This document shows positions 25,266 through 29,109 of a stretch of DNA of 30,695 nucleotides, piece by piece. The DNA is taken from the NCBI GenBank assembly GCA_017556845.1, contig JAFYMA010000147.1:1-30695 (forward strand). The letters run 5' to 3'. Position 1 is the stretch's first letter. The number at the start of each line of letters is the position of its first letter. The notes under the pieces were generated by a model. The model saw nothing but the letters and a program-made list of their open reading frames with translations. It was not told the DNA's origin and did no database searches. The position numbers and the translations under genes are program-made. Source of the stretch: Clostridia bacterium. Lineage in GTDB: Bacteria > Bacillota > Clostridia > Oscillospirales > CAG-272.

Positions 25266-27185
25266 TTAGTAACAGACGTATTTTATGAGAAGAGATTCTC
25301 TTTTGTTCGGTATTTTAAGCTGTATACCGTTTTGCGCAAGCTCTTTTCCCGAAAATATAAAGCTTTCGTTTGTATCGGCATTTATAAATTCATACGTTTT
25401 GCTTTCATCAATTCCGCCGAGCATAACGTCTGCCGCGGCAAACGGGCATTCTTCTCTGCGGAAGGCAAGTATTATACCGCTGCTCGTTTCAGGCTCGTCG
25501 TATTGCGATGCCGCCCAAGATACAGTTTCCTTTGAGTTTTTTATCAAAGGATAGAAATCGCAAGTAAAATAGTGCTGAACGGACAAATACTCATTGAAAT
25601 ACTTTCTCGCCCAATCGAACGGCTCGTTCGTCGCTCCGACCTCCCACTCAAAATCGGCATGCTCCCACGTACGAACAGTCATTCCGGGTGAGTAAGCACT
25701 TCTGAAGCTGTACGTATCACCGAGCGTAGGGCCGTATCCTACGCCTGAATAAGGATACCACCACGCATTTCCTATCGTCTGAAGCTGATAGCCCTCAGGA
25801 GCGTTATCCCATATACTGCAATAATCGCTTCTCCAAAGCGTTATAGACCTTGCAAGCGCTTCTATGTCAAGTCGGTGTCCGCCGCCTGCACAGTTGTCGA
25901 TAAGCAGATACGGGAACCTTTCAAGAAGTGTGTCCCAGAATCTGTAAAGGTTGTTTATGTATCTTATCTCATTTACACCGTCACGGTCATTTTCGTCGTT
26001 CAATCTCCAGAACGGGATTGGACCTATGTTGAAATCCTGTCTGTAAAGCGTTATGCCGAGCCTTTGTATAAGCTCGCTGACCTTTTCTATCAAAGCTTCC
26101 GCGACCTCATCCTTATGCAAAGCGATTATGACGTTTTTATCATTGGGATCGTGCATCGGCTTCATATATTCAGTCCACGGCTCTACGTTCAGATTGATCC
26201 TTTCAGGCTCAAACCAAAGCTGGAATTTTATATTCTTTTCCTTAAGCCATTGCACAGCGTCCGAAAGGCCGCCCGGATGATAAAGCTTGCTCACCTGCCA
26301 CGTTCCGACGGTGCCCCATTCTGCCGACTGCTCTGCACACGTTTTGCCCTTCATAGGCTCATACCATCCGGCATCCATCCAGCAATAATTGAACGGAAGA
26401 GCTTCCTTGAAGATACCCTGCCACCGCCTTTTTAAAGCATCGGTGGAAATTCCGCCCCAGAATATCGCAGAAAACGGGCATTCCTTATCACGCTGCTGCT
26501 TTCCGACGGGAGAAACACAGTCCTTTATGTATCTTCTCCACATATTGTGAGCGTTGTCCTGACCGTTGTCGTATTCAAGGACAGTTACAGATGACGTTCT
26601 GAATTTTTCGCCCGGCTTCATGTAAAATCGGACGCCCTCTATACGAGAAAGAAGCCTTACGTCCTTTTCTCCGCGCTCAAACTGAGCATTCCACTGGCCC
26701 GTCCAACCTATCGCCATGAGAACGCCCTTTTCCCGTCTGTTAAGATCAAAAAACGGTGACGTTCCCATTCCGCTTCTGCCCGAATGATTGGCTGCCTTCA
26801 GCGTTTCATTCGGCCAAAAGCGTGTGGCGTACGCCATATTATCGTAATCGGTGATGTTCGCTCCGTCTGTAATATAGAGCTTCAGCGTGTCAGTCGTCCA
26901 CACGGAATGCTTGTTTTTTCTGTTTTTCGCAGGATCTGCATCAAATTCAGCCGTAGTATCGCAGTCCCACAGATCTGATACTATACCGCTGTTACGGTCG
27001 GTATCATTGTACCAGTAATTCGTCCATTTTATTACGTTGTACTTTAGAAATCTTTCTATACGGCATTCTATGCACAAGCCGTCAGACAGAGTATATTTTA
27101 TTCCTTTTTCGGTTTCAACGATCGTTTTTTCAAGCTCCTCAAACGGAACGCCGTTATATTTAAAAGAAAAACCGGGATTTATCAT
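25266..27185 (-). CDS. Alpha-galactosidase (GH36)
   Basis: CWMDAGWY, LWFEPER, YRQDFN (nucleophile), IDNCAGGGHRLD, WRSD (acid/base). No signal peptide. Confidence 0.88.
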   Translation of the reverse strand: MINPGFSFKYNGVPFEELEKTIVETEKGIKYTLSDGLCIECRIERFLKYNVIKWTNYWYNDTDRNSGIVSDLWDCDTTAEFDADPAKNRKNKHSVWTTDTLKLYITDGANITDYDNMAYATRFWPNETLKAANHSGRSGMGTSPFFDLNRREKGVLMAIGWTGQWNAQFERGEKDVRLLSRIEGVRFYMKPGEKFRTSSVTVLEYDNGQDNAHNMWRRYIKDCVSPVGKQQRDKECPFSAIFWGGISTDALKRRWQGIFKEALPFNYCWMDAGWYEPMKGKTCAEQSAEWGTVGTWQVSKLYHPGGLSDAVQWLKEKNIKFQLWFEPERINLNVEPWTEYMKPMHDPNDKNVIIALHKDEVAEALIEKVSELIQRLGITLYRQDFNIGPIPFWRLNDENDRDGVNEIRYINNLYRFWDTLLERFPYLLIDNCAGGGHRLDIEALARSITLWRSDYCSIWDNAPEGYQLQTIGNAWWYPYSGVGYGPTLGDTYSFRSAYSPGMTVRTWEHADFEWEVGATNEPFDWARKYFNEYLSVQHYFTCDFYPLIKNSKETVSWAASQYDEPETSSGIILAFRREECPFAAADVMLGGIDESKTYEFINADTNESFIFSGKELAQNGIQLKIPNKRESLLIKYVCY

Positions 27186-28438
27186 ATTTCCTCCGCAACA
27201 TTATATTTTTGCATTTTTTCATTTTGAAGTGAAACACTCTGATCGTTTTTATAATATTTATTCACAAGGCTCACATAGCCCTGCTCTTTCATGTCGCCGT
27301 ATCTGAATTCAAACCGTGATTTATTACGTTTTCCCGTGGCTATATATCTTATACAGTCCTGCATATACAGATCTATCTGATGCAAGGAGCGATCTGTGCT
27401 TATCACGGGAAAAAACCACCTCGTCCACGTCAGCTCGTTCGATCTTGGATTATCGAAAAGCTTTCGGTTGAAGCACCGTATAAATACACGGCAGGCTTTT
27501 ATTCTGTCTACGTTGTTTTTGTCTGCCCAGCGGCACAGCGCCCTGCTTTTACGGCGCATCTTCCGTTTCAGTTTTTCCACGGATGCTCTGCAAATATCAA
27601 TTTCGCCGTTATTGTACGAAAAGCCCAAAAACGTCCATTCGGTATACGGCTGTGATACAGATTCCTTTTTTGAATTTATCTTAAGTCCCTTTTCATCCAA
27701 AACGCTTTTTATGTAGGAAATGCACGCTTCAAGCTCGTTTTCATTTTTTGCAAAAACGATAATATCGTCAGAATACCGTGCATACGGTATACCTCTGTCA
27801 AAAAAATATGCATCAAGCTCACTCAGATAAAGATCGGCAAGAAAGCCCGACACGGGAACACCCGCCATTATTCCTCTTTTCTGATATGTAGGCTCGTCGT
27901 TGTATAAAGCGTAGGGATATTCAAGAACGGAACGCAAAAACGAATAAAGGGCAGGATCGTTTGCCAAAGCGTTTTCAAGCATCGGCAACAGCTTTTCAAT
28001 GTCAACGGAATTGAAATAATCGCTGATGTCAAGCTTATACGCATAGTATCCGCTTATGCCGTCGAGCTTCAGAATATCGTTTATGGCATTTTTCACACCG
28101 TTGTTTTTTCTGAATGAATAAAGGTTGGGCGAAAAAATGCCGTCATACTCCGAAAGCATATACGCTATCAGCTTCAATACGTAGTTTTCTTCACGGCGGT
28201 AAACGTATACGGTACGCTTTTTATCCGTATTTGACTTGTTGAGAAGAACCTTTTGCGGTGGTGAAAAACAGCCGTTATTCAATATATCGTCCGCTATCGG
28301 AAGATATTCGCCGTTTTCAATGAATGTAAATAGATCGCCTCTTTCATCTATTGAAAGATTTCCGCACCTTTCTTTATGCTCAAAAAACGCAAGCCATTCT
28401 TCTTTATTTTTCAAACGCTCAAGTATACTGATGTGCAT
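27182..28438 (-). CDS. Stand-alone group II-like reverse transcriptase (YSDD), not within an intron
   Basis: RT1 PQKVLLNKSNTDKKRTV, RT2 FSPNLYSFR, RT3 KLDISDYFNSVD, RT4 GIMAGVPVSGFLADLYL, RT5 YARYSDD, RT6 GLKINSKK, RT7 FLGF, then a thumb-like C-terminal region with no endonuclease domain. GGAG RBS. Confidence 0.92.
   Translation of the reverse strand: MHISILERLKNKEEWLAFFEHKERCGNLSIDERGDLFTFIENGEYLPIADDILNNGCFSPPQKVLLNKSNTDKKRTVYVYRREENYVLKLIAYMLSEYDGIFSPNLYSFRKNNGVKNAINDILKLDGISGYYAYKLDISDYFNSVDIEKLLPMLENALANDPALYSFLRSVLEYPYALYNDEPTYQKRGIMAGVPVSGFLADLYLSELDAYFFDRGIPYARYSDDIIVFAKNENELEACISYIKSVLDEKGLKINSKKESVSQPYTEWTFLGFSYNNGEIDICRASVEKLKRKMRRKSRALCRWADKNNVDRIKACRVFIRCFNRKLFDNPRSNELTWTRWFFPVISTDRSLHQIDLYMQDCIRYIATGKRNKSRFEFRYGDMKEQGYVSLVNKYYKNDQSVSLQNEKMQKYNVAEEI
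27200..27228 (-). promoter_or_regulatory. Candidate promoter for the alpha-galactosidase, embedded in the RT 3' tail
   Basis: TTCAAA-17 bp-TATAAT directly before a GGAGG RBS; the resulting leader would be very short. Confidence 0.45.
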
Positions 28439-28452
28439 AAACGCTCCAAAAT

Positions 28453-28590
28453 AAAAAGACAGAGAGAAAATGCTTTAACAGCATAATTTTATGCTACTAA
28501 ACCGTACACGGACAAGCTACCTGCAAAGCTGTATGCAGTCCGTGCTTTGTTCACCGCAGGTGCAATAATGCGTTTCTCTCTGTTTTAAGC
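28453..28590 (-). ncRNA. Putative RT-associated structured non-coding RNA
   Basis: An 11 bp perfect IR (28459-28469 / 28573-28583) encloses three hairpins: CACC/GGTG, GCACGGAC/GTCCGTGT and AGCATA/TATGCT. It fills the gap directly upstream of the RT. Expression is not shown. Confidence 0.6.
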
Positions 28591-28603: not shown

Positions 28604-29056
28604 TTACAGATTTTCCTTTATTCTGTTCAATACGTAATTCTTTTCGTTTTCCCAACCGATATAAAATCTCATATACGGTATATTCTGCTCGTCAAGAATC
28701 GTATACGTGCCGACGGCGGGCATCGTCGTACGCTGATTTACACGCATTATCATAACTGCAAGGACGGGTGATCCATCCTTTTTGAACAGAAAAGTGATAG
28801 GAAAGCATTTCGGGTGGGCGTTACTGTCAAATCTGGACAGCATCACGTTTTGCTCTATACTGTATCCGGGAAAATTATCCTCGGTAAGCAAGGATGCGAA
28901 ATACTGAACGTTTGCGTTCGGGTTCGTGTCAACGAATTTTTTGAATTTAACGCTCTGCTCCTGCATTACAGGCTCTTTTTGTTCAGGCGTTTTCTGTGTG
29001 TTACCATCGGATGACGGCGAAAGCACCGCCTTAAGCAATTTATCTAAAAATCCCAT
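28604..29056 (-). CDS. Hypothetical 150 aa protein; C-terminal domain resembles a degenerate PD-(D/E)xK/DUF2726-like fold
   Basis: AAGGAG RBS before MGFLDKLL; IEQNV...PITFLF...PVLAVMI...IPYMRF pattern. The ORF is well supported; the fold call is tentative. Confidence 0.6.
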   Translation of the reverse strand: MGFLDKLLKAVLSPSSDGNTQKTPEQKEPVMQEQSVKFKKFVDTNPNANVQYFASLLTEDNFPGYSIEQNVMLSRFDSNAHPKCFPITFLFKKDGSPVLAVMIMRVNQRTTMPAVGTYTILDEQNIPYMRFYIGWENEKNYVLNRIKENL

Positions 29057-29080
29057 AAGTATCAACTCCTTTACAATTGA

Positions 29081-29109
29081 ATTTTATCACACAAAGTAAA
29101 AAAAGTCAA
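29081..29109 (-). promoter_or_regulatory. sigma-A promoter upstream of the hypothetical-ncRNA-RT unit
   Basis: TTGACT-17 bp-TAAAAT with extended -10 TG. Confidence 0.82.

Follow-up and report, generated by a model that had tools for sequence, protein, structure and literature searches.

A structured RNA of the RT-5 family as the probable cognate partner of UG26 reverse transcriptases

What is the long inverted repeat, with several hairpins inside it, that lies directly upstream of a reverse transcriptase (RT) gene in the clostridial sequence studied here? An original prediction, made from the 30,695-nucleotide (nt) stretch that we analysed in full (the window), took it for the template and primer RNA of an RT that is not itself retron-like. 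Here we compare the element with its counterparts across bacterial genomes and metagenomes. We conclude that it is probably the cognate noncoding RNA (ncRNA), catalogued in Rfam as RT-5, of a cassette that consists of a COG2852-like protein, the ncRNA and an RT of the UG26 group, in which the RNA would serve the RT as scaffold and template. The window itself is ordinary, being another copy of a known cassette of which both the RNA and the RT had already been catalogued. UG26 is uncharacterised, and its studied sisters (DRT2, DRT9, DRT10 and UG27) each make an unexpected DNA from a small RNA of their own. RT-5 as a near-universal partner of UG26, an RNA that is longer than the Rfam model and a loop of fixed length together offer a design for first experiments.

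RT-5 is one of 19 'RT' motifs that were found near RT genes and for which a role in retrons or diversity-generating retroelements (DGRs) was only speculated (Weinberg et al. 2017, PMC5737381). UG26 belongs to the class 2 UG/Abi RTs; a COG2852 cluster was reported in 9 of 35 members, the evidence for a role in defence was inconclusive and no ncRNA was listed (Mestre et al. 2022, PMC9226505). Our literature searches returned no paper that connects RT-5 or RF03026 with UG26, no experiment on a UG26 or RT-5 system and no UG26 paper later than that of Mestre et al.

Comparative sample

We searched 400 genomes of the same class, 18 of which carry true UG26 RTs, and a metagenome scan added 80 loci. 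A further 400 genomes of the phylum yielded no new UG26 match (none in about 388 other genomes), and IMG/VR contains no close UG26 relative, only RTs of 24–25% identity. Among the 17 related loci of the class, the 13 closest were scanned with the Rfam model, and 12 have RT-5 directly upstream of the RT. With a covariance model that we derived from 13 extended sequences, the RNA is found in 89 of 99 sources, and about 85 related loci were compared. Over the whole alignment 88.3% of cells pair, against 72% in shuffled alignments and 44–47% when the partner strands are slid. The recurrence of the element together with its covarying long-range stem bears out the view that it is a discrete, conserved and structured RNA tied to the RT.

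The reverse transcriptase and its accessory protein

The RT gene lies on the minus strand (27182–28438), with a ribosome-binding site, GGAG, at 28447–28444 and an ATG at 28438, and encodes a protein of 418 amino acids with a YSDD motif. PADLOC assigns it to RT_UG26 (8.6e-164, positions 2–396 of 398); the next models are UG27 (6.9e-35) and UG17 (4.6e-32). Pfam finds only RVT_1 and no fused domain, which places the protein in class 2. It is not retron-like, as had been surmised from the sequence: the PADLOC model RT_II-A reaches 1.6e-17 and the NCBIfam model retron_St85_RT reaches 63 bits against a cut-off of 235, and none of the NCBIfam models of group II intron, retron St85 and Drt2 RTs comes near its cut-off. 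On these family scores from PADLOC and NCBIfam, a retron identity was rejected. UG26 RTs keep a motif near the C terminus, LGYRSLV(H/N)(E/A)YY, that is followed by a short variable tail. The nearest solved structures are generic group II-like RTs, DRT9 and DRT2, and none of a UG26 RT was found among them.

Upstream of the RNA, on the same strand, is a gene for a 150-amino-acid COG2852-like, RT-associated protein (28604–29056), recognized by a weak match to PADLOC RTasCOG2852 (2.2e-7). In 67 of 80 loci a homologue immediately precedes the RNA, the gene ending 10–25 nt before the closing stem. Compared with the earlier census of UG26, in which the accessory gene was seen in 9 of 35 members and no ncRNA was listed, the RNA is almost universal here, and 67 of 80 loci have the accessory gene. 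In members of this protein family a linker joins an N-terminal helix, MGF(L)xKL, to a C-terminal domain that has about 90 amino acids and includes IPYLRFY..GWWN. The window copy has M in place of the acidic residue of VVEL (VMI), so this copy may have lost nuclease activity.

A pseudoknotted core

The core of the element matches Rfam RF03026 ('RT-5 RNA') over the entire model (28565–28466, minus strand; model positions 1–104 of 104) with 82.3 bits, compared with a gathering threshold of 45.7, and E = 2.2e-16. Helices P1–P4, the conserved loops and the position next to an RT are common to the Rfam family and the window.

Read in the direction of transcription on the minus strand, the 5′ arm of the closing stem (P0), which a conserved CGC follows, leads into a linker, J0 (CGCAUUAUUGC, 28562–28572), in which a small GCA/UGC mini-hairpin can be seen by eye and which forms longer hairpins in some relatives. 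The strand ACCUGCG (28555–28561) then pairs with UGCAGGU (28525–28519), which forms the apical loop of the central arm, and so makes a pseudoknot. In the RT-5 consensus the central arm (28498–28553) consists of P1 (28553–28549 with 28502–28498), P2 (28545–28538 with 28513–28506) and P3 (28530–28527 with 28518–28515). It is the most sequence-conserved part of RT-5 and is locked by the pseudoknot. The P4 hairpin, AGCAUA-AAAU-UAUGCU (28480–28495), is present in the Rfam alignment and in relatives; the single strand J4/0 (GUUAAAGCAU, 28470–28479), our candidate template loop, links it to the 3′ arm of P0.

Covariation sorts the hairpins that had been proposed from the window alone. The 8-bp helix GCACGGAC/GUCCGUGU, which is P2, the inner AGCU/AGCU helix, which is P3, and the AGCAUA-AAAU-UAUGCU hairpin all agree with the RT-5 consensus and covary; in the alignment of relatives, helices 2–5 are 87–95% paired with changes on both sides. 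Two further proposals did not hold. A CACC-UGC-GGUG hairpin pairs in 84.5% of cells with zero compensatory changes, every change breaking it, and its 5′ half is instead one strand of the covarying pseudoknot. The alternative inner helix, UGCA/UGCA, would occupy the pseudoknot loop. At the 7-bp pseudoknot itself 98.6% of cells are paired, against 28–45% in slid controls, and covariation is seen at 5 of the 7 pairs. A hairpin of at least 5 pairs stands at the P4 position in all 81 distinct relatives, formed by 79 different sequences, and J4/0 is exactly 11 nt long in 75 of the 81, with the family consensus UUUAANNNNUU.

A closing stem beyond the Rfam model

From one end of its closing stem to the other, the RNA measures about 132 nt; this stem, P0, has 12–14 bp. 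In the window, the purine-rich 5′ arm (AAAACAGAGAGAAA, 28573–28586) pairs with a pyrimidine-rich 3′ arm (UUUCUCUCUGUCUU, 28456–28469). The arms had been reported with the right letters and positions (AAAACAGAGAGAAA, 28586–28573; UUUUCUCUCUGUCUUUU, 28470–28454), and the count of pairs is also confirmed: 11 perfect pairs run from A28573–U28469 to A28583–U28459 and are followed by an A28584·C28458 mismatch and two more pairs, that is, 13 of 14. The C28458 mismatch is specific to the window; two close relatives (L002 and L003) have U at this position, and a related metatranscriptome contig lacks the base.

A 172-nt stretch spanning the element folds at −51.8 kcal/mol (z = −3.35; none of 200 shuffles as good), and the minimum-free-energy fold includes the closing stem. 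Perfect 11-bp inverted repeats with arms 60–160 nt apart are not rare at the scale of the window (1 seen against 1.3 expected from Markov resamples of the 30.7 kb), so the case for the closing stem rests on where it lies and on how it covaries among relatives. That the stem would be conserved and would covary among RT homologues was borne out, with 96.4% of cells paired and compensatory changes at 12 of 12 pairs. The relatives pair, for example, GGGGCCGGGA with UCCCGGCCCC and CGCUGAUCAAA with UUUGGUUAGCG, and almost without exception purines dominate their 5′ arm and pyrimidines their 3′ arm. Because the alignment had been fitted to the structure, we added an alignment-free duplex test for P0. 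Folded as a duplex, the 5′ and 3′ flanks of the same RNA average −23.6 kcal/mol, whereas shuffled flanks reach −11.8 and non-cognate ones −15.6, and the cognate duplex beats all 100 of its own shuffles in 63 of 81 sequences.

The RF03026 model lacks the 5′ arm of P0 and most of the 3′ arm, so the closing stem extends the catalogued RT-5 motif. New beyond RF03026 are this stem, the U-run that follows it, the link to UG26 and the accessory gene, the promoter and accessory-gene layouts described below and, as a proposal, a template loop of the DRT10 kind.

Directly 3′ of the stem is a U-rich tract (UUUUUAUUUU, 28448–28457), of which the first two U residues are paired in P0. At least 5 U residues occur within the first 8 nt 3′ of P0 in 65 of 80 relatives, and in about a fifth of loci a further GC-rich, U-tailed hairpin can be made out by eye ahead of the RT start. 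The stem end is 17 nt from the RT start codon in the window (median 22 nt in relatives). The U-run and the extra hairpins fit the original suggestion that stem and U-tract set the 3′ end of the RNA and limit RT expression; the effect itself is a predicted one. A simple terminator scan makes no call at the stem and U-run, because the 'loop' is about 104–108 nt, and RNA contigs cross the stem.

The spacer between RNA and RT varies in other ways. In L012 it holds five tandem copies of CTTAAAA (1449–1515), a unit that loosely resembles the complement of the UUUAA loop; the sister locus L089 has the same RNA and no repeat. In L077 a terminator-like unit of about 50 nt occurs as a tandem duplicate.

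Locus layout and expression

On the minus strand of the window, a promoter-like site is followed by the 150-amino-acid gene (29056–28604), a 165-nt gap that contains the RNA, the RT gene (28438–27182) and a GH36-type gene. The probable operon promoter, upstream of the accessory gene, is TTGACT-17-TAAAAT with TG (29081–29109; 10 of 12 matches), which is the best minus-strand match of a simple sigma-70 scan in the window and the sole good one. A weaker local promoter that had been proposed for the RNA, TTGAAC-18-TAAATA, fails the same kind of scan, and its −10 box is not kept in the close relatives L002 and L003. Relatives without the accessory gene have TATAAT 7–12 nt upstream of the closing stem.

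The neighbours in the window are housekeeping genes (glmS-like, phosphoglucosamine-mutase-like, GH36 and SpoVT). The RT stop codon overlaps the ATG of the GH36/melibiase-like gene (ATGA, 27182–27185); in L002, which is 95% identical, 24 nt separate the two genes, so the coupling in the window is probably incidental.

Expression data came from low-depth Logan contigs of four metatranscriptome runs from animal gut. Contig X17 spans positions 29057 to 28540, and the contigs bridge the accessory gene to the RNA and the RNA to the RT, so read-through transcripts probably exist. An abundant discrete small RNA is not seen in these data, which are of a type that would not reveal one. Logan contigs of three RNA runs all end within the RNA core (28503–28540), a pattern that probably reflects assembly trouble at nested inverted repeats and not biology.

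Loci that depart from the layout

In L005 (2857–4048) 1.2 kb separate the RT-5 RNA from its UG26 RT, which is intact; a GH43 gene lies between them on the opposite strand, and the RNA has its own TATAAT promoter and a hairpin-plus-U terminator. L008 (2695–3909) has a UG26 RT without an RT-5 RNA in its 4.2-kb locus; its RT start adjoins an open reading frame (ORF) of 404 amino acids that matches nothing in Pfam, and L007 has an ORF of equal length downstream of its RT. The ORF may represent a mobile element. Four distant UG26-like RTs (L017–L020; E values of 1e-105 to 1e-81) have no RT-5 upstream and may use a different RNA; two of them, L019 and L020, have tmRNA and tRNA genes as neighbours.

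Alternative readings of the element

The most likely job of the RNA, judged from its relatives, is that of a scaffold for the RT and a template for DNA synthesis, because DRT2, DRT9, DRT10 and UG27 use their RNAs in this way. Among the readings that compete with this one, the least probable is that the repeat arose by chance or is a generic element, REP-like or a terminator, with no tie to the RT; the comparative data refute it. One perfect 11-bp repeat at such a spacing is about what 30.7 kb should contain, but the element occupies the same place beside about 85 diverged RTs with 12 of 12 pairs compensated, and it is single-copy in its own genome (a metagenome-assembled genome (MAG) that is 74% complete). 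This check for a generic repeat, which the original prediction had raised against itself, therefore leaves the link to the RT standing. A retron msr–msd, in which the inverted repeat would be the a1/a2 pair and a G beside the 5′ arm would prime through its 2′-OH to give a branched msDNA, is very unlikely. An inverted repeat that encloses hairpins directly upstream of a same-strand RT, and the conserved CGC after the 5′ arm, are what such a reading would expect; however, the RT is UG26 (RT_II-A, 1.6e-17; retron St85, 63 bits against 235), the RNA is Rfam RT-5 with a pseudoknot and there is no retron effector gene. Of the retron-like architecture that had been pointed out, the closing a1/a2-like repeat is real, and the msr–msd interpretation falls with the UG26 assignment of the RT and with retron models that stay far below threshold. 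A closing stem of the a1/a2 type is also present in DRT10, as SL1, and is not diagnostic of retrons. Rolling-circle copying of the stem-enclosed core into concatemers with a stop-free 'neo' frame, in the manner of DRT2, is just as hard to credit. The closing stem does bring the ends of the core together, and of the 34 cores with a length divisible by 3, 32 have a circular frame free of stops, but around 70% of 108-nt cores would be open by chance (an estimate), core lengths modulo 3 show no real preference (0, 2 and 1 in 34, 27 and 20 cores) and the 104-nt core of the window has stops in all six circular frames. The neo-frame candidate was rejected on these last two counts.

Two further readings deserve more weight. 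The RNA might act purely in cis, as an attenuator, a terminator or an autoregulatory site bound by the RT, and never be a template; we regard this as improbable. Its nearness to the RT start (17 nt in the window, median 22), the U-run 3′ of the stem, the extra terminator hairpins in about 20% of loci and the RNA contigs that continue through the element into the RT all suit a leader. Against it stand L005, in which the RNA lies 1.2 kb away behind an opposite-strand gene with a promoter and terminator of its own, a pseudoknotted multi-helix core with invariant loop bases that far exceeds what an attenuator needs, and the characterised class 2 relatives, all of which use such RNAs as templates. 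A rather better, still unlikely, alternative is that the RT copies the P1–P2–P3 arm once, yielding a hairpin single-stranded DNA (ssDNA) of about 50–70 nt and requiring the accessory protein. This would follow UG27, in which the central hairpin of pseudoknotted units of 135–167 nt is copied into ssDNA of 50–100 nt and both accessory proteins are needed (bioRxiv 10.64898/2026.09.22.753630). UG27 is the second-best PADLOC model for the RT (6.9e-35), and UG26 also has a conserved accessory gene. However, the hairpins of UG27 arrays are diverse in sequence, whereas RT-5 is a single unit with a central arm that is its most conserved part and is locked by the pseudoknot, and inspection of RT-5 by eye does not bring out the motifs that mark the UG27 boundaries (AUC...UANAG and UUYA).

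Possible mechanism of templated synthesis

For a scaffold-and-template RNA, the sub-mechanism that we prefer, and hold only tentatively, is DRT10-like copying of J4/0, the loop between P4 and the closing stem. The RNA would bind the RT as a scaffold and offer part of its own sequence as the template for cDNA. P4 and the closing stem, which flank J4/0, would be the anchors of the RT, and the loop would be copied, perhaps more than once, into short A/T-rich repeats that contain TTAAA; the conserved Tyr-Tyr at the C terminus of the RT might provide the primer. The closing stem and U-run would probably end or attenuate transcription, leaving the RT to be made by read-through.

A bolder version, which we consider doubtful, is that UG26 with RT-5 constitutes a further telomerase-like system that adds repeats, in which a nuclease-fold accessory protein takes the place of SLATT. 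Here the fixed 11-nt J4/0 loop would be gripped within the RT active site by P4 and the closing stem. An A-B-A′ repeat of the loop (such as GCUUU-AAC-GCUUU) would let the protein-primed cDNA slip back, and the cDNA would grow as tandem repeats of 8–9 nt containing TTAAA. Among family members, the sequence made up of the final bases of P4 and UUU often reappears 8–9 nt further downstream, for example in GGAUU-UAAU-GGAUU and GCUUU-AAC-GCUUU. The direct repeat that spans the junction has a mean length of 3.53 nt, compared with 3.17 (s.d. 0.09) when permuted, and none of 1,000 permutations is as high; the base before UUUAA matches position 8 of J4/0 (A with A in 18 of 40, C with C in 13 of 20). 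A phylogeny-controlled version of the test comprises 3–5 independent pairs, most of them in the same direction, and does not reach significance (sign test, p ≥ 0.25), and J4/0 of the window itself has only a 2-nt repeat, GC..GC. At the level of sequence, the direct-repeat signal in J4/0 is suggestive for the family.

Comparison with DRT10 and UG27

In DRT2, DRT9 and DRT10 alike, a neighbouring ncRNA serves as the cDNA template. In DRT10, the 5′ and 3′ ends of the RNA pair as SL1, the template loop lies between SL5 and SL1, both of which anchor the RT, an A-B-A′ repeat permits repeats to be added and synthesis is primed by a Ser or Tyr at the C terminus (bioRxiv 10.1101/2025.10.16.682844 and 10.64898/2026.06.29.735271). 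The cassette studied here resembles DRT10 (UG17), whose ncRNA has about 137 nt, in the position of the ncRNA upstream in the operon, in a stem that pairs the ends of this RNA and in a class 2 RT with a conserved C-terminal hydroxyl residue, which in UG26 is a candidate primer. Flanked 5′ by P4 and 3′ by the closing stem, J4/0 occupies the place that loop B has in DRT10, a likeness of topology alone. The two differ in RT group (UG17 model, 4.6e-32; UG26 model, 8.6e-164) and in their neighbours, as no SLATT gene lies beside the window RT, which is flanked by the COG2852-like and GH36 genes. RT-5 also has a pseudoknot, and its A-B-A′ repeat is suggestive in the family and absent in the window. 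UG27 is the nearest RT group by hidden Markov model (HMM) and shares with UG26 the YSDD motif, a pseudoknotted RNA of similar length and the association with accessory proteins. It differs in organization, with multi-unit prophage arrays and two accessory proteins, whereas UG26 has one RNA unit and one small accessory protein.
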